Shown: piece after piece, positions 8,221-55,232 of the stretch
Numbering within the stretch: position 1 is the stretch's first letter
Layout of the letters: every line of letters begins with the position of its first letter
Source of the DNA: Bacteroidota bacterium
GTDB lineage: Bacteria; Bacteroidota; Ignavibacteria; UBA10030; UBA8401
Direction: 5' to 3'
Length of the DNA stretch: 64,000 nucleotides
Assembly (NCBI GenBank): GCA_021796275.1
Contig: JAJYOI010000003.1
Location: forward strand, 1,532 to 65,531
The notes under the pieces: generated by a model
Seen by the model: the letters and a program-made list of their open reading frames with translations, nothing else
Database searches by the model: none
What the model was told of the DNA's origin: nothing
Made by a program: the position numbers and the translations under genes

Positions 8221-11200
8221 TCATTTGATCAAGGCAAATTTAACAATGCGCTGCCCCACGCCGGGCGCATCAATGTGGGCGATATACACACCGTAGGCAA
8301 CACCAAGATTATCGCGGTTGAGCAAATCCCAGTACTCGCGGCCATTATCAATACCTGAATCATGTTCAAGCGTCCGCACCAACTCGCCCGACAAAGTAAA
8401 AATGCGAATGGTCGCGCGCGGCGGAAGATGTTCAAAATAAATTCTGCGGCTGCCGCGTGTCGTTCCCGGCAACCGATCGGTCGGTTCGATGTCGTTGACC
8501 GCCACATACGGGTTCGGCACGACTTTGATGCGGTCAAGCGTGCCGGACGCTTTCGCTGCGTCAAACTTCGCCGCAACGGTTTGAAACTGATAGACATCTT
8601 TTGAAGTAAACGGCTGCTGGGTAACAATCCTGAATATTTCTCCGCCGAACTTTTTGTTCAGCGAATCTTTTGCAGAAAAAGTTACTTGATACATTGTGTT
8701 ATTTCCGCTGCCGTACGGCGGTGGAGTGACAAAAATAATCGGTTCGCCGAAATCCCACCGCCCGTCCTTTGCCCCTTTCACAACAGTGGGCTTCGATTCT
8801 AAAATGCGGGCAGTGATCTTTATATTTGCCCGAATAGAATCTTTAGTGACATTGACGATGTGGAATGGAGTGATCACCGGTTTATTGATGGTGTTCGGCA
8901 GCGTATCGCCGTAAGCGTACATACCATTCGCCAGGGTATCGGAGGAATAAAAGAAAATCTGAACATCAAACGGAGCCACTTTGATTGTCCCGATGGTTGG
9001 AAGCCCGACGTGGTAATCAATAGTCTTATTATTATCATTTACCCACGTACTGTTTATCGTATCAAGCGCTAACGGTTGATTCTGGGCGAAAACCTTGATG
9101 CCGTCAAACACCGGATTTGCTTCTTCGTTGTTGATCAGCGTGCTCGGCGGCTGGCCAAAGAAGCGGTATGTTACGTTGAATGGCCCCGTTTTATTTTTCA
9201 TTGCGCCGCTGCCGGTCTTGCGAAGAAGTCCGCGCACGGGATCGAGAACATAGTCCGTGTTCATCGCAAAAACCTGATTGGACTGAGCATCGGAAACGAC
9301 AAAAAAAGAATCAACGGAAACGTTCGTTCTGCCGATCTTCACATAATTCGTATCGAACAAATATACTTGAGATGTGACAGGATCAAGACGCAGCACGGAA
9401 TAGTTCACCGCCGCAATCTTTTTTGTGTCCGTCTGCAGCGAATCGGCAAATGTAATTCCATATTGCGCGTCGCCCGAAATTGCCATGTCGTTAAGAATTT
9501 GCAGCGTGATTCTTCCGGTCGCACTTCCCTGAATATGGTCTGCGCCTTCGGCCGATGCAAATCCCGGCGGCGTGTATCCGCTTGACCGCGGGCCAGGAAT
9601 AACGGCAACCGTGTTCACGTCAAATGTCATCCGCGACGTAATCGGGTCAATGCTGATGCGCTTTGTACACTCGCTCGGCGGATACTGAACGGAATCACCG
9701 TGATCGTACGAGACGACGGCATAATAATATGTCTGACCGTTGATGACATTGTTGGAATCAACATACGAATGGACTAAGCCTGTGTTGTCGCCGAGATAAT
9801 ATGAGACTCCCCGGCCGTCGTACGCTTTGGGCGCGTACCCTTTCCAATAATCGTCAACTGATGCATCCCATTTCCCGTTGCCGTTCAAATCTTTATACCA
9901 TTTTTTGATCGTGTTGTCGTACACAGCGCCGGCAGATCCGCTATCGGCAAACGGTTCGGGCCGTGTTGCAATATCCCATTTTGCGTCCCGCCCTTTTGAA
10001 TCCTGTAACGGCTGTGCGAGAAGCGATGTGCCTTTGCCGTCGGTAATCTGATTGATGTCTGAAAATTGCGGATCAGTGCTTCGGTAAATCACATAGCCTT
10101 CAAAATCTTTTCCCTGAATCGGATCAACGCTATTCTCTGCCTCGCTGTCCCAATACAGTGTCGCTTTGCGATCTCCGGCAACCGCCGTCACAATCGGTTT
10201 ATCCGGCGGACGGATGAATTGATAGTTCTGATTGTAAATGACCTGCACCGTTTGTGCCGTGAGAAGAATATCATCTTTATTTTCTCCCATCAGCAGCGCA
10301 ATGGAGAATCGTTTTATCGAACCGTCGGTGTCTCTTTTTTTCAACGATATTTTCCCGGAGCCGTACAGAAAAGAAATGTCTGTTACTTGCGGAATCGTAT
10401 TGTAGAATCCTTCCTCAAGATGCTGCCACACCAAAGAGTCGGTGCTCAGATTATTGACTGGGTCTGCACCCCATGTCCAACTTCGGAATGCAGTCAAACC
10501 GATCTGATCTGATTCATCGAGATCGGTCAGTTCAAAATTCGGTTCACCCGGATGAAGCGGATCAAGTGTTCCATCCGGCAAGCGAATGCCGGCGGTCGGT
10601 ACACCGTCCCCCTCGCCCGGATCATGCGTATCCGGAACGCCGTCAATGCCGACATCGTCATTCGTTGCTTTCCAATCATGATCGTCGTCAATTCCATTCG
10701 TCTGACTTTCATCAATCATGCCGTCGCCGTCATTGTCAATGCCGTCGTTAGGATTTCCCGGACTCTCTAAAAATTTGCATGCATCATAATGCGTGCGCAA
10801 TCCATAATTGCCGACACCGTCATTATCCCAGAAATACACGAGGCTTCGTGAAAAAACTGCTACCGGTTTTCCTGTGAGCCGGTCAACTGTATCCAACGGG
10901 GAAATAAAAAATCCAAGATCATCTTGTGATTCAGCCGTGTTGATCGGATAGCCGCCGCCGACATCAACATCGCCGTACATGCCGAAGTACACGGTATCTA
11001 AATCGCGCGTGCTGTAATTCTGAACAGTGTAAACAAAGAAAATAGTATTTTGCGCAAGCGCATTGCTCCACTGCAGTGCACGCCCTTCTACTTTCACTCC
11101 TAATCCGCGTAAATGCCGTCCGTCGGAAGCGACTGTATCTTTATAGAACGGAAAATATGCAAACTCACTGTTGTCGCGGTCGTCCATACCCCACAGCACT

Positions 11201-11766
11201 TCAAGGTCGGCGTTGGGAACATCCTGACGCAGGTAGCCGGGCCACACATATTGCCCTTTCGACGGATTGTACCAACTCGAGGGCCAGCTATCCGGCTTGC
11301 CGTCACGCGGACTAATATCAGGTGCACCGCTTGATGCCATCACAGGCGATGAAGGATCAGCATAATCGGGCAACGGTTCCCATCCGTAAATGACCGAGTT
11401 GTCGTTCTGATCCACATCTTTTGCGTACACATCATTCACAGCATCGGAAGAGATCGCGACAACCTTGCCGCTTGAATCAATAACTGACGCCGCAACAAGT
11501 GGGCAAAACTGATAGATGTCGCCTAAGCCGTGCCAAACCATATTATTGACGTGGCGCAGAAGTCCGAGCCCCGGTGCAATGCCGCCGTAATTATAAATAT
11601 TTCCGACAATTTGGTTTCCGTTCATCAGGAAGTATTTCCTGTCGGCAGCGCTCGCCTGCTTATTAAACCATGCCGGAATATCCGCTTTCGTCAATCGCTG
11701 CTGCTGCGCAGTGAGGATTGCTGTGCAGCTTATCATAATGAGAATAATTCGACCGTACACTTTCAT
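8221..11766 (-). CDS. Large secreted protein with Asp-rich Ca-binding repeats and a T9SS C-terminal domain; candidate PorU-like T9SS C-terminal signal peptidase
   Basis: 1181 aa, signal peptide. IDNDGDGMIDE / DDDHDW / DGVPDTHDPGEGDG repeats. C-terminal ~90 aa match the type-A T9SS sorting domain (…GVYIAHIDAPGVGQRIVKFALIK). The size and the upstream position relative to the PorV-like gene mirror porU-porV operons. The C25 catalytic motifs were not verified. Confidence 0.45.
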   Translation of the reverse strand: MKVYGRIILIMISCTAILTAQQQRLTKADIPAWFNKQASAADRKYFLMNGNQIVGNIYNYGGIAPGLGLLRHVNNMVWHGLGDIYQFCPLVAASVIDSSGKVVAISSDAVNDVYAKDVDQNDNSVIYGWEPLPDYADPSSPVMASSGAPDISPRDGKPDSWPSSWYNPSKGQYVWPGYLRQDVPNADLEVLWGMDDRDNSEFAYFPFYKDTVASDGRHLRGLGVKVEGRALQWSNALAQNTIFFVYTVQNYSTRDLDTVYFGMYGDVDVGGGYPINTAESQDDLGFFISPLDTVDRLTGKPVAVFSRSLVYFWDNDGVGNYGLRTHYDACKFLESPGNPNDGIDNDGDGMIDESQTNGIDDDHDWKATNDDVGIDGVPDTHDPGEGDGVPTAGIRLPDGTLDPLHPGEPNFELTDLDESDQIGLTAFRSWTWGADPVNNLSTDSLVWQHLEEGFYNTIPQVTDISFLYGSGKISLKKRDTDGSIKRFSIALLMGENKDDILLTAQTVQVIYNQNYQFIRPPDKPIVTAVAGDRKATLYWDSEAENSVDPIQGKDFEGYVIYRSTDPQFSDINQITDGKGTSLLAQPLQDSKGRDAKWDIATRPEPFADSGSAGAVYDNTIKKWYKDLNGNGKWDASVDDYWKGYAPKAYDGRGVSYYLGDNTGLVHSYVDSNNVINGQTYYYAVVSYDHGDSVQYPPSECTKRISIDPITSRMTFDVNTVAVIPGPRSSGYTPPGFASAEGADHIQGSATGRITLQILNDMAISGDAQYGITFADSLQTDTKKIAAVNYSVLRLDPVTSQVYLFDTNYVKIGRTNVSVDSFFVVSDAQSNQVFAMNTDYVLDPVRGLLRKTGSGAMKNKTGPFNVTYRFFGQPPSTLINNEEANPVFDGIKVFAQNQPLALDTINSTWVNDNNKTIDYHVGLPTIGTIKVAPFDVQIFFYSSDTLANGMYAYGDTLPNTINKPVITPFHIVNVTKDSIRANIKITARILESKPTVVKGAKDGRWDFGEPIIFVTPPPYGSGNNTMYQVTFSAKDSLNKKFGGEIFRIVTQQPFTSKDVYQFQTVAAKFDAAKASGTLDRIKVVPNPYVAVNDIEPTDRLPGTTRGSRRIYFEHLPPRATIRIFTLSGELVRTLEHDSGIDNGREYWDLLNRDNLGVAYGVYIAHIDAPGVGQRIVKFALIK

Positions 11767-44971: not shown

Positions 44972-45309
44972 TTGATTCTTCTCCTGTAAATAGATTTATG
45001 CATGAGATAATATTAGAGACTTCTGAAAAATGACAACCAGGCTGTGGTGAGCGAAGTCGAACCACGATTTCATCACAATTTCCGCACTTTGACTTCACTC
45101 AGTGCGACTTTCTTGAATTGCAAAACGATTTTTCAGAAATCTCTACTACTAAGTCATGTTACGCAGCGAAAAAATCTGCCTAAAAAAGTAAGTTCGTCAT
45201 GGTACGCTTTAGCGTACCATCCATACTTGGATTCCTCCCGACTTTGTCGGGACGGGAATGACATTATTCTGATTTTGATTTTCAAGGCAGTCATTTTGCG
45301 TACCATGAG

Positions 45310-45597: not shown

Positions 45598-45699
45598 TGT
45601 TGACTCCTTTCAGACATGGTCTGATCAGCCTTTGGCTGAGTTGACGCTTTCACATCAACGACTTTTGAATACGCTGTGTACCGCTTAGCATACGCGTAC

Positions 45700-46653
45700 T
45701 CACACCCGCCGCATGTTATCCTTGAATCGTATCGTCTGCGCAATGCCTTCCGGGTATGATATCGGAACGTAGTGAAAGTGCTCGTTGAACTTTGTCGAAT
45801 CAAAATAATAATCGAACTCGCTCTGATAAAGCATCTCGTACGATTCCCGCACAGTTCTGTCGCTCACTCCGGCTAACCTCAGCATCCATTTCTTAAGAAC
45901 CATGCTTCGGGGTGCAACACCAAGCTCCTTCGCGGCAATTTCAATAAATGTTCTTCCGTTGATCGGCGGATTGGATGTGGGAAGATGCCATACCTGATTG
46001 AAAGCCGCCGCATCATCGGCAAGCAAGTGCAAGCCGCGTGCACAGTCGAGTGTGTAGCTGTACGAATGTCCGGCGTCAGGGTTCACAAGCCAGTACGCCT
46101 TTTGTCCGCGGCGGAGCCTGTCGATAACCAGCAGTTGTGGAACGCTAGTCTTCGTTGCGTACGGCCCGTAGAAATCCGCGGCGCGGGCGATAATTGCCTG
46201 CACGTTCCCCCGTTTCATTTCTCCCTGAAGCTGTTCCGCTATCGTTACGCGCACCTCCCCTTTTCTGCTGCACGGAGCGTACGGCGTTACTTCTGTCATC
46301 TTGCCGGATACTTTGCCGTAGGAATAGACGTTATCCAGAAAAATAAGTCTCGCATTGCTTGCGGTGCACGCTTCGATTGTGTTGGACATGATCTTAGGCC
46401 AGAGTCCCCGCCACACTTTTGTATCGTACGCGAGTCCCGCGCACAGGAAGACCACGGCGGAGCCTTTGACTCCTTCCATCGTATCATGAAGCGACGTAAG
46501 GTCGCCTTTAACCGACTCGGTTCCGCTCCACGAAAAAGCACTTCGCGAAACAAGCCGTACCGTCTTCTTGTTGGCAAGAAGTGTTGACGTTAATGCGTTT
46601 CCGACAGAACCGCCTGCGCCAAGTATTGTATAGAGATGATTGTTGTTTTTCAT
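45700..46653 (-). CDS. NAD-dependent epimerase/dehydratase (atypical SDR) family protein
   Basis: N-terminal Rossmann ILGAGGSVGNALTSTLL. 317 aa. Confidence 0.7.
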   Translation of the reverse strand: MKNNNHLYTILGAGGSVGNALTSTLLANKKTVRLVSRSAFSWSGTESVKGDLTSLHDTMEGVKGSAVVFLCAGLAYDTKVWRGLWPKIMSNTIEACTASNARLIFLDNVYSYGKVSGKMTEVTPYAPCSRKGEVRVTIAEQLQGEMKRGNVQAIIARAADFYGPYATKTSVPQLLVIDRLRRGQKAYWLVNPDAGHSYSYTLDCARGLHLLADDAAAFNQVWHLPTSNPPINGRTFIEIAAKELGVAPRSMVLKKWMLRLAGVSDRTVRESYEMLYQSEFDYYFDSTKFNEHFHYVPISYPEGIAQTIRFKDNMRRV

Positions 46654-46745
46654 GTAATCAATTCTCCGGAAAAGTATGAAGCCTCAGTGTGCCGCCATTG
46701 CATAGAATGTTTCGGCAACACGCAGCGCCGCACTCCATATGTTTT

Positions 46746-46813
46746 TATGACGGCGTCATTGAGCGAGCACGTCGTTTATAAAATGTCGAGCGTCGTGATG
46801 CGGCATGTAAGCC
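46746..46813. repeat. 68-bp repeat element, copy A
   Basis: About 80% identical to 47566..47633. Shares ATGACGGCG, GAGCGAGCAC and CGAGCGTCGTGATGCGGC blocks. Confidence 0.7.
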
Positions 46814-47493
46814 GCCGCGCTCTGACCGTTTGCTGGTGGCTCAAATAAGGAATCCGAGAAGGGGACATTGACTTCCAGAACTCGGTATTGAGTAACTGTG
46901 GTCTGCGTAACGTCGTAGTGGACTGTGCCACCACCCCTCTGAATCGGAAGTCGATGGTCAACCCAGACCCACTCTCTATATCCGCCGCTATCGCCAAAAA
47001 CATTACAAACTTTACCAAGTATTACCTCTGTTTTCAGAAATGGCGGCGACTGTGTAAACCAACTGCCTAAGTAAGCTTGAACATCTTGATTGTAGGCGGT
47101 ATCCAAATTTGGCAGCTGAGGGTATGTTAGATGACCTTCATAGTCATTCCATGCGATGCCCTTCTTCAAGTCATAGACTGTTATGTTGGAAGGATACTGC
47201 ATAAACTTTTCATGAGTCGAATCAAAGTAGACTTCAAAGATCGGCGCAAATGAACTATCAGATTGACCATTGACAACCACGGAATCATATACGACAAAAT
47301 GAATTGAAGTGATGCCCTCGGCAGCAAATATTTCATGGGCGGATAAATCGCGTGACGGAGCGGGCATTGGAAAATTATCTGGACCTGTCGGACTATTACA
47401 AGAGGAAAAGGCGAACAAAGAGATTCCCAAACTCAGAACCGAGATGATCAATCTAGTTTTCATGTTCCATTCTTCCGTAAACGAGTAAAACAT
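46756..47493 (-). CDS. Hypothetical lipoprotein
   Basis: 245 aa. Signal peptide with lipobox FSSC. The C-terminal ~19 codons lie inside the 68-bp repeat. Confidence 0.3.
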   Translation of the reverse strand: MFYSFTEEWNMKTRLIISVLSLGISLFAFSSCNSPTGPDNFPMPAPSRDLSAHEIFAAEGITSIHFVVYDSVVVNGQSDSSFAPIFEVYFDSTHEKFMQYPSNITVYDLKKGIAWNDYEGHLTYPQLPNLDTAYNQDVQAYLGSWFTQSPPFLKTEVILGKVCNVFGDSGGYREWVWVDHRLPIQRGGGTVHYDVTQTTVTQYRVLEVNVPFSDSLFEPPANGQSAAAYMPHHDARHFINDVLAQ

Positions 47494-47565
47494 TCAAATG
47501 CTCCAGGACAATTGCAACTAACGTCCTGCCGCATCACGCCGTGCCGCCGTTCCATGATATATAAA

Positions 47566-47633
47566 ATGACGGCGGCATGGAGCGAGCACAATGAATATGA
47601 AATGCCGAGCGTCGTGATGCGGCGTGTTAGGCG
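47566..47633. repeat. 68-bp repeat element, copy B (just 3' of the BNR/T9SS gene)
   Basis: See copy A. The upstream GCCGCATCACGCCG (47528..47541) is inverted relative to CGTCGTGATGCGGC inside the element. Confidence 0.7.
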
Positions 47634-47644
47634 AAGTTGCTTTT

Positions 47645-49561
47645 TCACTTTAGCAAAGTCAGCTTCTTAGTTTGGATCTGGCTGCCGGCTTGAATTCTAT
47701 AGAAGTAAACTCCACTCGGAAAGTTGCTCCCATCGAAAGTAACAGAGTGCCCGCCGGCATTTTGCTTTTCGTTGACGAGCGATTTAACTTCTCTTCCGAG
47801 GACATCATAGATCTTCAGCGAGACGAAACTGTTCGTAGGTAATTGATAACTTAATGTGGTCGTTGGGTTGAAGGGGTTGGGGTAGTTCTGCCCGAGTTGA
47901 AATTCGATTGGCTTTCCCTTAGGCTGCTTAATTCCAACGGGCGCGAGGCCGATACCTGAAGCTCCTACTGAATCAGGCGATTCAGCCGAGTTGCTGACGA
48001 TGGTAATCATAGCCTGCTTAGAATATACATCAGGTGTAGCGGGGGTGAATCTGATCACCAACGAATCGCTTCTACGGGGAAGCACCAGAGATGGTATCTG
48101 CACAACTGAGAATTGCGGATCGGTGGATGAAACCGATATTATTCTCAGTGTATCAAATCCGACATTTTCCAGTAGCAACGAGGTGTCTTTGCATTCCCCG
48201 GTTAAAACGTTGCCGCATAAAACTCCGGATTCCTGTAGCTTGAGGAACGGGACCTTTGAATAAAGCAGGACCGGGATCGAGTCGGGGCTCAAGTAAGAAT
48301 TCGATGTGAAAACAATATTACCTGAATATTTGCCGGCTGAAGTCGCCATAGTGCTGACCTGGAAGCAGCCGGTATCTCCGGGTGAGATCGTTGCACTAGA
48401 TGGCGTAATATTAAATGCAGGGTTGGTTGAATTCACCTTTGAGATAAGCAGCGTATCGACCCCTCTATTTCTTATCACGATGGTATCGCGCACAGGGGAA
48501 GAAGTAATGTCACTGACGATCCTTACGATTCGTTGATTGATGCCAAACATAGTGGTCGATTGCCGGGTCTTAAAAATGCCATGTTCAAATGTTCCTGCTA
48601 GCAAATCACCGGCTTTGTTTGTTGCGAAACAAAGGACCTCGATGCCTTCAAGACCGGAATTGAGCTGGATCCATGATGCTGCATTGTGAAGCGAGAGATA
48701 AACTCCATCTGCGGTCGCCGCAAACAAATGCCCGATGGAATTTTCCTTTAAGTCAGACATGTAAACCTCAGGTAATCCACTGTCTGACCAATACCAAAAG
48801 GCTCCGAGATCGTTTGACTTCATCACACCACCATCCGTGCCGAGATAAATAACATTATCAGCTCCAATTGCAATCGCTCGCGTGGTATAAAGCCATGGAG
48901 ACCTCCCTACAAACGTGACATGACACCAACTCGTGCCGTCATCCGTTGAGCGGAATATTTCGCATCCACCTCCACTAGCATAAATATCGCCTATCGAGTT
49001 AAATGTCATGGCATACACTTGAGTCTCGTCAAAGAACACAGTGCTCCAAATGGTTCCACCATCCGTTGACCGCGATATTCCACCGACCCCGCCGGCAAAG
49101 ACCTGACCCTCCGAATTTGCAACGATTGTCCTGACATAAGTTACATCGCTTCCGATATTTAATTTATTCCACGTGAGGCCGTCGTCGGTTGATTTATAAA
49201 CCTGACCGTGGAGAGAAGCAAAGAGATTTCCATGCGGGTCACAGGCAATCGAAGAGGTAATGGTAAGTTCTCCGGCGTTGCCGTTGCCACCGTTTGTTAT
49301 CCAAGCCCATGTTTCGCCATTATCGGATGAACGGTAAATACCCGAATCTGCAGTCCCCGCGAACATAGTGCCCAAGGAATCGACCAAGACGCACCAAACG
49401 CTTGCTTTGTAGGGAAAAGGTACCGATTGCCAAAAAGGATTGTCAGAATTTGTAGTTTGCGATGCAAACGACGGAATCGAAGTCGCCAGTGCCAGGAGAG
49501 CGACAAGTACAAGATACAATCGGCTTTCCATCTTGACAATGATCTCACCGCGGGTTCCCAT
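47645..49561 (-). CDS. Secreted BNR/Asp-box repeat (beta-propeller) protein with T9SS C-terminal domain
   Basis: Repeated SxDxGxTW motifs (SSDNGETWAW, STDDGLTWNK, STDGGTIWST, STDDGTSWCH). C-terminal LGQNYPNPFNPTTTLSYQLP…KLTLLK CTD. Confidence 0.65.
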   Translation of the reverse strand: MGTRGEIIVKMESRLYLVLVALLALATSIPSFASQTTNSDNPFWQSVPFPYKASVWCVLVDSLGTMFAGTADSGIYRSSDNGETWAWITNGGNGNAGELTITSSIACDPHGNLFASLHGQVYKSTDDGLTWNKLNIGSDVTYVRTIVANSEGQVFAGGVGGISRSTDGGTIWSTVFFDETQVYAMTFNSIGDIYASGGGCEIFRSTDDGTSWCHVTFVGRSPWLYTTRAIAIGADNVIYLGTDGGVMKSNDLGAFWYWSDSGLPEVYMSDLKENSIGHLFAATADGVYLSLHNAASWIQLNSGLEGIEVLCFATNKAGDLLAGTFEHGIFKTRQSTTMFGINQRIVRIVSDITSSPVRDTIVIRNRGVDTLLISKVNSTNPAFNITPSSATISPGDTGCFQVSTMATSAGKYSGNIVFTSNSYLSPDSIPVLLYSKVPFLKLQESGVLCGNVLTGECKDTSLLLENVGFDTLRIISVSSTDPQFSVVQIPSLVLPRRSDSLVIRFTPATPDVYSKQAMITIVSNSAESPDSVGASGIGLAPVGIKQPKGKPIEFQLGQNYPNPFNPTTTLSYQLPTNSFVSLKIYDVLGREVKSLVNEKQNAGGHSVTFDGSNFPSGVYFYRIQAGSQIQTKKLTLLK

Positions 49562-49657
49562 TCGTACCTCCTTTGAAAAAGCAATTTCGCCTAACTATTG
49601 TAATTATGAATTGCGTTTTTACAACAACATTCGTGTCAAAGACGAACCTTCGTTGCG

Positions 49658-49933
49658 TTATTGCTCACTTCCCCGAAGGGGTCCTTCGGACGTATGCAGT
49701 ACCTGCTCTATCGGGCTTCGTATTGCCGCAATAGTCCGTTTGCTTACATGTGTGTAAATCTCGGTCGTGCGCACGCTGCTGTGCCCTAACAATTCCTGTA
49801 TAAAACGAATATCTGTATTTATCTCACGGCATAAAGTTTTCGGAGAATAATTTCTCAGCCGCATCTCTGCGCCGAGCACCTCGAAAAGTCTGCCGTGTGT
49901 GTTGTGTGTGATTTGTCCTGTGTGTGCGGTCAT
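49658..49933 (-). pseudogene. C-terminal remnant of a tyrosine-type site-specific recombinase/integrase
   Basis: …[28 protein letters not shown]… equals the conserved box II/catalytic Tyr region of phage-type integrases. There is no N-terminal or core domain upstream. Confidence 0.55.
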
Positions 49934-50154
49934 CGTTGCTTTCTTTGAGCCAGCCTGTCCGCCATCTTTTTGACGGAAGGCTCATCAGCCTTTGGCTGAC
50001 GTCAGACTTTGCAATGATCCGTTTCCTCTACAACCCGAACCTGCCTGCGGCAGGCATGCGCCAATAGTGTATAAAAATTTCCCGCAACTGTCAAGCCTTG
50101 CCGGTAAAGTTTCTCGCTTACGCTGCGGCAAAAGTCCCTCTGCATACCGTCTGT

Positions 50155-50412
50155 CTGGCAGTGCAGGTCGTTTGTCCGGCGGTGCGGGTTTCTGTACTGG
50201 CGGTGCAGGTCTCTGTACCGGCGGCGCGAGCATCTGTACTGGTGGCGCGGGCTCTGTACTGGCGGTGCAGGTCTCTGTACCGGCGGGAGAGGTCTCTGTA
50301 CTGGCGGCGCGAGCATCTGTACTGGAGGCGCGAGCTCTGTACTGGCGGGAGAAGTCTCTGTACTGGCGGCGCGGGCATCTGTACTGAAGGCGCGGGTCTT
50401 TGTACCGCGGTG
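50155..50412. repeat. Array of about 12 tandem 20/21-bp direct repeats (consensus GGCGGYGCRGGYCTCTGTACY), iteron-like
   Basis: Read directly. Units alternate between 21 and 20 bp, so no reading frame is preserved across the array. Confidence 0.9.
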
Positions 50413-50538
50413 CAAATAGCTGAATTTCAGCCAAAAACGATAATTCCATTGGAAAATTGTCTGTTTTCGTCAGAAAACCACAGTTGGAGCGGTGCGGGTC
50501 AAGCCGCTCCTGTGTGGTTGTTTCTTTACAAAAGCCGC

Positions 50539-51252
50539 CTATGGTGCAGGCGGTGGTTCAGGCGGAGGTGGCGGTGTGTCACCGTCATTTCCGCCGGGGG
50601 GCGGCGGTGTGAAGCGAAGCTCATACGCATGCTGAAACTCTTTCAGAACAAGAGGTTCGCGGATGAACTCCATCTTCGCCGCCGCTTCTATCTCGTCCGC
50701 AATGTCGGTAACGGCTTTCAGCTTTGCCGCCGCCGCTGCGGTTGCCTGCGGGGATTCCTGTTTTCTGCTCACTTCCTGCACCGTATCGTCAGCCTCGAGT
50801 GCCTCGCGGTTGGCGATCAGCTCAGTAAGGTCGCTCGCAACAAGCTTCCCTTTGGTGGTAAGAAGTGTTTCATGAGTGGCCCATGCTGACTCGATATCCT
50901 TTGCCCACTCAATCAACCGTGATGTCGAGCGGCCATAATGATCGCCGACGTGGAATTGGCGAAGAAGGTCGCTCTTCTTTCCGAAGCACAGCCTCGCACC
51001 TTCCTGTATTTTCTGGATAGTGATGTGAAGCTCGTTCTTGGAATTGGATTCCTTCTTCGTTTTGTCTTTGCCGGTAGCTCTCTTCTCCGTCACCGTCGCA
51101 TGCGAACCCTGCATGTCGTCAACGGAGGCATCGTAGCTTCCCAGCAATGCCGATGTAATGCCCCGCGGTTCTAACCGCGCTGCATACGTGATGCACAGAG
51201 CTTTCAGGTACCGATGTTCCTGCTCGGCTCCGTGCGATGTTGGTCTGCCCAT
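50539..51252 (-). CDS. Hypothetical protein with proline-rich C-terminus
   Basis: 237 aa. …FTPPPPGGNDGDTPPPPPEPPPAP tail. No known motif. Confidence 0.3.
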   Translation of the reverse strand: MGRPTSHGAEQEHRYLKALCITYAARLEPRGITSALLGSYDASVDDMQGSHATVTEKRATGKDKTKKESNSKNELHITIQKIQEGARLCFGKKSDLLRQFHVGDHYGRSTSRLIEWAKDIESAWATHETLLTTKGKLVASDLTELIANREALEADDTVQEVSRKQESPQATAAAAAKLKAVTDIADEIEAAAKMEFIREPLVLKEFQHAYELRFTPPPPGGNDGDTPPPPPEPPPAP

Positions 51253-51866: not shown

Positions 51867-51907
51867 GTCCAGATGTAGGACACCTCAAAGGTGTCCTACA
51901 TCTGGAC
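51867..51907. other. Perfect 18-bp stem hairpin (loop TCAAA)
   Basis: GTCCAGATGTAGGACACC tcaaa GGTGTCCTACATCTGGAC. No flanking U-tract. Confidence 0.8.
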
Positions 51908-52008
51908 CTAAAAATCAGACGCGTCGTACCATTGCTGTCCGACAGTTGAGCTGTCGCACTGAGCGAAGACGAAGTGCGACAAACGACAGTTAAATCCTTC
52001 AAGAATAA

Positions 52009-53910: not shown

Positions 53911-54330
53911 TTAGTATTTATAAATCAGTTTACGAAATTATGCTGATCACCGCCACCTAATTATTAATTATACTGCACGTTATTCGTGCGTAAAGTACAT
54001 AGACATGCAGGATCGTGCATATTTATCATCCATCGTCTATATCAGCCTAACGGACTTCATATTTCTTTTCGACGCTCTTGCACAAAACAACACCTCTCCT
54101 GTGTCTCAGGCTTTTTCACCGAGAAATCTTTACTTCATTTCATTTGGAAAATCTTCTCTTTCACAGCTATCACCCAAAAGAGATAAGGCTTGTGCGCTAC
54201 AAATGGAATCGTTTGCGGGTTGAAAATGACGCCATAGGCGTTATTGAAAATCCCTTAGGGATTCTGCTCTCGCCCCGCGCAACATAATTTCCCGTTTCCC
54301 TTAGTCAAAATCAAGTCCCCGGCAGAGAAA

Positions 54331-54457
54331 GCAGTGACTCATTTTGAACTCTTCTAAGATGTTTTATTTGATTCCCGACAGAAGCATTCGGGAATGACGA
54401 ACTTCCATTTACGTCATGCCCGCAGATTTTTGGCGGGCATCCAAAATGAGTCACTGC
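54331..54457. repeat. Composite palindromic element (16-bp inverted repeats flanking two internal hairpins)
   Basis: GCAGTGACTCATTTTG (54331..54346) / CAAAATGAGTCACTGC (54442..54457). Internal ATTCCCGAcagaagcaTCGGGAAT and ATGCCCGCagatttttgGCGGGCAT. Confidence 0.7.
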
Positions 54458-55232
54458 CGCAGAGAAAGTTACAGTCAATTCTCTTCGTGCGGACCCCGCC
54501 AGCGTTCTTTTCCGCCTAAGGCGGGCATGTTTCCGCAGTGTTTTGGGAAGTGCAACTCGGTTCCGGACAGTCGCAAATGAAATATGCGAAAGCGCAGATT
54601 GAATCCGGAAGTGCCCGGATTCAATCCGCGCATGTACACTTCGTTTCCGGACATCCCCCGATGCGGGTGCGGGTGCCCAAAGAAAAAGCGGGCATGTACA
54701 GATTCGACCGTTACATGTACACTTTTCACCGGGACATGTAACGGCGGCAGTTGTACATGTGCAAACGAAGGCGAAACATGCCCATTTTCTATGTATAAGC
54801 GCCAAAATTGCGCGTGTAGTTGGGTTTTCACCAAAAATGTGGTAGTGTTACCGTTTGATGTTCCCTAACCCCAAAAACCAGTCACCGCCTTGGGCGGAAT
54901 AGTCCGGCTCTCCCGTTTAGGCAATGTCTGAGCGGGATCGCTCCATAACCTTGCTTTCAAAATGTAACACTACGGTAGTGCCTCAGTTTGAAATTTTCCC
55001 GGTGGGACAGACATTTGAGCGCCGTTGGCGCCATGGCGCTTTGCGCCACCTGTCTGTCGAAAATAGGTCAGACAAGAATGTCTGACCTACCTAAAAAATG
55101 AAATTGAAACACCGCCAACACTACCCTCTGCTTGACTTTCCCGTCTCTCCTTCTCACATTATCTCTCGCCGGCTTCAAAGTGATTTCAGTGCTTGCACAA
55201 CACGATATTTCTCACCCTAAAAGGTCTGCATT

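Follow-up and report, generated by a model that had tools for sequence, protein, structure and literature searches.

The question raised by this locus is what kind of element is formed by a run of direct repeats, 20 or 21 bp long and joined head-to-tail, that lies within a stretch of Bacteroidota DNA of 64,000 nucleotides (hereafter the window). The preliminary description of this DNA suggested that the repeats may be Rep-binding iterons, from a replicon origin either integrated or left as a relic, or else a protein-binding array, associated them with a nearby recombinase fragment and regarded the open reading frames (ORFs) across them as artefacts.

The repeats themselves, first given as about 12 tandem units of 20/21 bp without spacers, were confirmed together with their consensus. 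Read in register, the array consists of 12 units with zero spacers at 50157-50412 (~50148-50414 according to TRF and an exact-seed repeat finder), with the consensus GGCGGYGCRGGYCTCTGTACY or, on the minus strand, CCGCCRGTACAGAGACCTGCA; the minus strand is taken as the sense orientation from the strand of the flanking genes. Counted from 50157, the unit lengths are 21, 21, 21, 21, 20, 21, 21, 21, 20, 21, 21 and 21 bp. Both 20-bp units lack the same base, and since they recur at a spacing of 83 bp, the higher-order unit of the array is 83 bp long (21+21+21+20), three such blocks making up the window array. The short units go back to one 1-bp deletion, later amplified together with its block, and the array grows both by whole units and by 83-bp blocks that include the frame-breaking 20-mer. 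Within the 64 kb scanned, the core TCTGTACYGGNGG occurs 10 times against 0.14 expected, and a two-unit pattern 7 times against 0 expected. The search for the 21-mer elsewhere, proposed at the outset as a check on a replicon origin, yielded no support for one: all copies of the core lie inside the array, and the array has no match in 72,556 plasmids. Its G+C content is 65%, that of its flanks 50%. Contig k141_1253706 of ENA assembly ERZ27233560 is base-for-base the same over the array, both 20-bp units included; an assembly error is unlikely, because this independent metagenome assembly is identical (reads possibly being shared), and the array is thus invariant between two assemblies from the same population.

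All features that matter here are found on the minus strand, in the order 237-aa gene, hairpins, array, promoter element, integrase remnant, GTTAGGC site and cassette-like genes:

50539..51252, minus strand: complete gene for an all-helical protein of 237 aa, of an uncharacterised family (HMMER family, AlphaFold2)
50465..50553, minus strand: terminator-like hairpins past the 237-aa gene (fold z-score -5.0; terminator scan)
50157..50412, minus strand: tandem array of 10 x 21 bp and 2 x 20 bp (TRF, repeat finder, second assembly, L040 orthologue)
50066..50094, minus strand: sigma-70-like promoter element TTGACA-17 nt-TACACT (promoter scan, 10/12 matches)
49658..49933, minus strand: integron-integrase remnant of 91 aa, internally deleted (PF00589; NCBIfam TIGR02249)
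49589..49595, minus strand: GTTAGGC core-type site (GTTRRRY), an inverted match to the GCCTAAC of the attC at 47626-47632
47516..47632, minus strand: well-formed attC of 117 bp, GCCTAAC...GTTAGTT (attC scan and folding)
46747..46814, minus strand: decayed attC copy (direct repeat D2, 82% identity to the good attC)

The smaller of the terminator hairpins overlaps the stop codon of the 237-aa gene, and the longer one is followed by UUUUC. The sigma-70-like element points away from the array and toward the integrase remnant, and, as CTTGAMnTTnGCGG...TAC, it occurs as a single copy in the window and is kept past the array of the related locus L040 (see below). Since dnaE, proS and a hydrogenase-4-like operon are present in the window, the context of the array is chromosomal; the host probably falls in the Ignavibacteriota-like FCB group.

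The array forms the 3′ flank of the 237-aa gene. An exhaustive HMMER search gathers 69 family representatives (at 50% identity) of ~235 aa that share one end, a short Pro-rich tail. Because the homologues end in this common tail, the 237-aa gene is complete, and its C-terminus does not extend into the array. The idea that the array is a frameshifted C-terminal repeat domain of the gene was rejected for the same reason (40/40 aligned homologues end at the Pro-rich tail) and because of the terminator standing behind that end; the array also shows no excess similarity to the 3′ end of the gene. The AlphaFold2 model, for which the family alignment was used, is all-helical with two 57-residue helices and a pLDDT of 94.8. 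It has zero significant fold matches in the PDB, where the protein also has zero sequence relatives, and neither a winged-helix fold, nor any other known DNA-binding fold, nor an endoribonuclease-like fold was found in it. Pfam recognises no domain in the protein or in the family members; NCBIfam NF052641 (‘PQLLE family’) gives a sub-threshold match to 29 of 40 members. A literature search on the PQLLE family and on the 21-bp repeats returned nothing relevant. The isoelectric points of the family span 5.3-9.6, and a Shine-Dalgarno sequence of the GGAGG type precedes 8 of 10 family genes, as it does several genes of the window. Searches of 72,556 plasmids, 50,697 phages and the viral contig collection returned no match to the 237-aa protein.

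On its other side the array faces what is probably left of an integron. The integrase remnant joins an N-terminal RLRNYSPKT to the C-terminal catalytic-Tyr region ending in ...RSPIE; its top NCBIfam match is the integron integrase TIGR02249 (E 2.6e-13, final 41 profile positions only), and no close homologue was found. The distance of ~220 bp first given between recombinase remnant and array is correct, the ATG of the remnant at 49933 lying 222 bp off. The fragment is probably part of a decayed chromosomal integron (45700-49933, minus strand) with intI in the orientation of the cassettes; an intact integrase is absent, and one good and one decayed attC remain. The GTTAGGC at 49589-49595, between the remnant and the first cassette-like gene, is a possible attI crossover point, judging from the sequence of that one site. 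The first cassette-like gene encodes a 638-aa T9SS-tailed protein, 3′ of which lies the good attC (-47.7 kcal/mol, ends paired), and the decayed copy (46814-46747) overlaps the end of the next ORF. In ‘inverted’ chromosomal integrons (Treponema, Chlorobi-type) intI likewise stands in cassette orientation. The resemblance concerns the context only (integrase remnant, GTTRRRY site, attC and cassette-like genes, all on the minus strand); differently from these elements, the array is placed upstream of intI, on the side opposite to attI and the cassettes, and is shared with L040, where intI is absent. The suggested link between array and integrase fragment is therefore not upheld, since it is the helical-protein gene, on the opposite side, that accompanies the array, which occurs in L040 without intI. 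One exception to the linkage of array and gene is a third genome (see below), in which the array is found together with the first 14 codons of the remnant. The array as part of an integron platform upstream of intI was rejected as well, on account of L040 and because the remnant is without close intact relatives.

The closest homologue of the 237-aa protein (P0002, 83% identity) is encoded at L040/L041 (MAG GCA_021796215.1), in a different chromosomal context. The DNA homology between the window and L040, 81%, takes in the gene, the terminator hairpin and the promoter-like element and fades at the edge of the array; the alignment shows that L040 retains the hairpin, an A:U pair being replaced by G:C in a compensatory change. 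Between the same terminator and promoter-like element, L040 carries 10 units, all of 21 bp, in 63-bp higher-order blocks. The two unit consensuses agree on the same strand at 14 of 21 bases (67%) in circular alignment (P=0.002), and from this match in the same slot it follows that the arrays are orthologous. Their divergence is about that of other non-coding DNA. Despite the 83% identity of the proteins, the most-conserved unit positions differ between the two arrays, so that a shared recognition motif is not evident. The distance from array to downstream promoter is ~10 to ~62 bp. In L040 the promoter-like element TTTTTCTTGAMCTTCGCRGAGGGTTTGGTTACTTTAGGTG (~40 bp) occurs twice, 460 bp apart (11039-11069 and ~11503-11545), the copies lying in different reading frames, each before a different small gene or the restriction-modification pair; because the second copy is in another frame, the element is conserved at the DNA level.

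The third genome is represented by P0194, the sole homologue of the array ORF among 5.8 billion proteins, which is an ORF covering units of the type seen in the window together with the same promoter element and those first 14 integrase-remnant codons. Its array has at least 15 units, at least four of them 20-mers, and the register shifts four times or more, passing through ST, PV, YR, ST and PV; since these changes repeat, the 83-bp block has been amplified further in this genome. The family gene apparently has no detectable copy there, despite the same array type.

Arrays recur at more distant family loci. The flanks of the family genes were surveyed at eight independent loci (135 kb in total), one contig, L046, stopping 0.2 kb past the family gene. 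At L051-53 (P0126, 36% identity), ~18 units of 21 bp with the sequence TCCGCATAGCCGGAAATTCAT begin immediately past a terminator hairpin, and at L049/50 (P0130, Candidatus Acidoferrales MAG) at least eight units of 21 bp, GTCCGAACTACAAGGTTGGTC, lie ~0.8 kb downstream; the proteins of these two loci are 35-36% identical to that of the window. L044 (Ignavibacteriota MAG) shows a decayed 21-bp periodicity, still open as a 128-aa ORF, and L048, L054 and L055 have no array. Only four arrays of at least 100 bp and a period of at least 15 exist in the 135 kb (window, L040, L051-53 and L049/50), and all four have a period of 21, 42, 63 or 84 bp. Finding at least three arrays in eight loci has a P of ~3e-5 to 4e-4, with the base rate set generously. 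Distant homologues thus repeatedly have a downstream array of equal 21-bp period and unrelated sequence: circular alignments of the unit consensuses between lineages are at chance, window against L040 excepted, and for this reason a common core ATGCAG or ATGCGG across lineages was rejected. What recurs is the position of the array and its 21-bp period, the sequence being free.

The reading that we prefer, with confidence that stands about midway between doubt and assurance, is that the array is a non-coding, rapidly restructuring minisatellite of 21-bp period in the spacer between two transcription units, acting in cis as phased DNA. It is bounded upstream by the terminator of the 237-aa gene and downstream by the sigma-70-like promoter reading into the probable decayed integron. 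Twenty-one base pairs correspond to two turns of B-DNA, and every unit therefore shows the same face of the helix. The property conserved would then be period and tandem layout rather than sequence; with a constant period and a changing sequence, a geometric property is probably what is relevant. Iterons and tandem-repeat centromeres have such a same-face arrangement for cooperative protein binding. By analogy, it is possible that the array, as non-coding DNA, binds protein; it would most likely be a cooperative protein-binding platform, or else an architectural or insulating element beside the helical-protein gene, and the first candidate for its ligand would be the adjacent 237-aa protein. 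The step to a phased DNA platform for that gene in particular is a weak one. Against the 237-aa protein as ligand speak its lack of a recognisable DNA-binding fold, the wide span of isoelectric points in the family and the differing conserved unit positions in the window and L040; against a fixed layout, the varying distance to the downstream promoter. Against cis-acting phased DNA speak the three family loci that lack an array and the third genome with an array and no family gene detected; against strict phasing, the two 20-bp units, which perturb it; and against gene linkage, an unlinked 21-bp array in an Ignavibacteria MAG (L005). The latter (JADJTX010000035.1, 535-861) comprises 16 tandem 21-bp units CCCTCCGGTACRGAGTGGTTT without indels at 59% G+C, in a long AT-rich non-coding stretch followed by AATCCCGTAGGGATT palindromes, and no family gene is found in the 3.4 kb examined.

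A stronger form of the phased-DNA reading, which we put forward tentatively and consider rather doubtful, makes the PQLLE-like helical protein and the 3′ array of 21-bp phase a conserved two-part unit, that is, a protein with a co-diverging cis DNA platform. Such a unit would be found in Ignavibacteriota, Acidobacteriota and relatives, in chromosomal islands that are variable, with period and not sequence conserved, and its logic would be comparable to that of a centromere-binding protein and its centromere, or of a silencer and its nucleation site. If the link proves functional, it would provide the first handle on the helical family, so far without a Pfam domain and with only a distant, PQLLE-like match in NCBIfam, and an example of bacterial selection on repeat geometry instead of repeat sequence. 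As it stands, an array of fixed period and free sequence that recurs beside one orphan gene family in distant bacteria is a modest, unexpected observation.

The main rival, which we judge possible but on the unlikely side, is a functionless, self-perpetuating variable-number tandem repeat (VNTR) in which slippage or unequal exchange maintains an inherited unit length of 21 bp; its recurrence near the helical-protein gene would only reflect the recombination-prone variable islands that both share. Bacterial VNTR or minisatellite loci are those used in MLVA typing. The array resembles them in being head-to-tail, in having a higher-order structure and in differing in number and order between related genomes (12 units in the window, at least 15 in P0194 and 10 in L040), most copies being intergenic or frame-independent; it is an unusual gene-linked variant of the bacterial minisatellite. 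The free variation of the unit sequence, the amplification of frame- and phase-breaking 20-mers within the 83-bp block and the three family loci without an array all fit a neutral repeat, as does the placement of the loci among integron cassettes, restriction-modification genes, SIR2-HerA and REP/RAYT elements. However, ordinary VNTRs would not be expected to keep one 21-bp period next to members of a single gene family in different phyla: the period is exactly equal and on the same side in homologues that are only ~35% identical, no further long array exists in the surrounding 135 kb, and the bacterial deletion bias would be expected to purge neutral arrays over such distances.

An improbable alternative has the arrays as genes for a small heptad-repeat protein, each paired with the helical-protein gene in a two-gene unit; the copy in the window would then be a frameshifted pseudogene or would tolerate changes of register. 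Stops are absent from all six frames over the window array, and the register of the ORF shifts at every 20-bp unit; since no frame has stops, the coding view can hold that register changes are tolerated in this copy. In its favour, the period equals seven codons in every lineage, and a sense-strand ORF covers every array (154, 89, 153 and 200 aa); the 128-aa ORF of L044, with decayed heptads, begins 6 nt past the stop of the family gene and is the sole open frame in AT-rich DNA. Column shuffles contain somewhat more stops in the ORF frame than the arrays do (combined P ~0.006, under a null that is biased against arrays built of unit subtypes), and in the homologous register RQYRDLH of the window differs from SQFNDMQ of L040 mostly by conservative changes. 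Through the repeats of L040, L051 and L049 the frame is kept, but the window array breaks it twice and P0194 four times or more. The other signs are also against translation: in four arrays the three codon positions vary to about the same extent (mean entropy), each of the four differences that separate the higher-order copies of L040 is non-synonymous, and a Shine-Dalgarno sequence is missing at six of seven array ORF starts, the seventh having only a weak AGGAAG. The heptads share nothing between loci (PPVQRPA, NDMQSQF, PHSRKFI, VRTTRFV), and in three of five arrays (window, L040, L049) the antisense strand is as open as the sense strand. Moreover, the array ORFs run across the promoter element conserved as DNA, a terminator stands between the 237-aa gene and the array, and the NCBI annotation has no gene there in L044 and one on the opposite strand in L050. 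No array ORF has a Pfam match, and the one homologue in the protein collection itself lies over an array copy. A coding frame conserved in relatives was the finding named in advance as decisive against the first reading, and the result is mixed: one relative does keep 21-bp units and an ORF, but this ORF bears no signs of a real gene. Translation of the array is thus unlikely; gene callers report ORFs over it because the unit sequence itself keeps frames stop-free. The early opinion that these ORFs are artefacts is most likely right, given the frame breaks, the lack of codon-position bias and the mostly absent Shine-Dalgarno sequences. Note also that gene callers make spurious Pro-, Thr- or Arg-rich hypothetical proteins from such arrays.

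We regard as very improbable that the repeats are transcribed into a repeat RNA (antitoxin-like, a sponge or the 3′ UTR of the helical-protein mRNA) that is bound or processed by the adjacent protein. ToxIN-type loci consist of a protein gene, a terminator and tandem short repeats; these co-occur here, an intrinsic terminator separating tandem short repeats from a protein gene as in type III toxin-antitoxin systems (toxIN, cptIN, tenpIN), and read-through of the terminator could produce an array transcript. The order gene, terminator, repeats is, however, the reverse of that of the type III systems, the units are 21 nt against 34-45 nt, and the promoter scan found no promoter between terminator and array. 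Furthermore, Rfam gives no match up to E 1, the arrays fold no better than shuffles (z 0.05 to 0.75), and the protein is not ToxN-like, its fold not being that of an endoribonuclease.

The weakest account makes the repeats iterons of a plasmid or phage origin of replication, either integrated or left as a relic. It is scarcely credible and already largely refuted, for although the array has 12 direct repeats of 20 or 21 bp, within the 17-22 bp of iterons and phased at two helical turns, beside a gene and near a recombinase remnant, it lies on a chromosomal contig with neither an initiator gene, nor an excess of DnaA boxes, nor an AT-rich region. The proposed check for a nearby rep or initiator gene returned none among the neighbouring ORFs (Pfam, PHROGs, NCBIfam), the family members match no Rep in Pfam, and no winged-helix domain is present in the helical bundle formed by the neighbouring protein. 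DnaA boxes are at chance frequency in the window, with none within 3.8 kb of the array, which has neither an AT-rich unwinding region nor a skew inflection. Plasmids, phages and viral contigs are unmatched (the array itself was compared with plasmids), and the repeat sequence has diverged even at orthologous loci. In known cases, R6K has 22-bp iterons and P1 incA has nine 19-bp iterons downstream of repA; iterons of theta plasmids and of P1 share with this array the ~20-bp direct repeats, the two-turn spacing, the ~10 copies and the adjacent gene. They differ from it by their Rep initiator, AT-rich unwinding element and DnaA boxes, whereas the array is chromosomal, strictly head-to-tail and spacerless, without plasmid homology and with a sequence that is not conserved between orthologous loci. 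An iteron origin would have flagged an integrated replicon, and this reading fails.

A gene next to a run of repeats is also typical of tandem-repeat partition centromeres such as F sopC (12 x 43 bp downstream of sopB), R1 parC and pSK41 parC, in which sequence diverges fast and organisation is kept. In contrast to these, no ParA, ParM or TubZ NTPase gene was found among the neighbours of the array, the 237-aa protein has no RHH/HTH centromere-binding fold, its binding to the array is putative, and the locus is not on an extrachromosomal element.

Several minor observations concern arrays elsewhere. Scans of genomes and metagenomes for CCRGTACAGAG gave ~15 arrays of 20 or 21 bp, most of the long matches being eukaryote-like or cyanobacterial STRR-like low-complexity DNA, with no family gene near any of them; a wider array family sharing this core was rejected, since the core is imposed by the search pattern and the flanks are non-homologous. 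Two short contigs of the Chloroflexota MAG Bse_22 (L004 1-360, L006 1-300) carry 21-bp arrays of the unit ACCACCGGTACAGAGACTATG that shade into diverged units without indels as far as an ATG, and they may be both ends of an assembly-broken Thr-rich heptad-repeat gene (TGTETMT).

The surroundings of the family genes are varied. Family members are often found beside defence genes: SIR2_2 and a HerA-like ATPase in L054 (1349-4131), an N6/N4 methylase, GmrSD, HEPN and RE_MjaI in L049 (1-2561), and NmeDI-like and Dam genes in L040 (11574-12954). None of the PADLOC defence models matches the family as such, the scattered matches each being to one member. IS200/RAYT-type Y1 (HUH) transposase genes stand beside the module in two lineages; the one in L040 (9138-9569 and 9559-9820) is inserted upstream of the helical-protein gene with CCCCACGATGAATCGTGGGG palindromes on its flanks, and the one in L051 (4495-5061) is directly past the array. 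Seven family members (P0123, P0124, P0132, P0135 and P0137-P0139) are on contigs of only 903-1051 bp. That these contigs scarcely exceed the family gene suggests that short-read assemblies break at repeats on both sides of it; arrays of this kind break such assemblies, and many family members are known from contigs of ~0.9-1 kb.

Other repeats are found in the window itself. A perfect 19-bp inverted repeat at 51867-51907 (GTCCAGATGTAGGACACCT AGC AGGTGTCCTACATCTGGAC) lies at the outer boundary of the DNA that the window has in common with L040, and the ENA contig stops inside it, at 51903. A REP-like hairpin CGCACT...AGTGCG (~26 nt) is present at 45083-45108 and, inverted, at 51953-51978, and once in L040 (13347-13370). 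The 1.3 kb at 53911-55232 are ORF-poor and contain several short repeats around GCATGTACA or ACATGTAC, among them a 21-bp x 2.5 tandem repeat (54689-54740) and nested palindromes (54693-54760). A hammerhead-like CUGAUGAG at 49985-50010 was dismissed, Rfam giving no match; it coincides with the first of two copies of a small hairpin TCAGCC-AAA-GGCTGA. These copies (49990-50006 and 45624-45640) lie inside a 30-nt direct repeat, D8, of 80% identity, the first between the promoter element and the integrase remnant and the second past an epimerase-like cassette gene.
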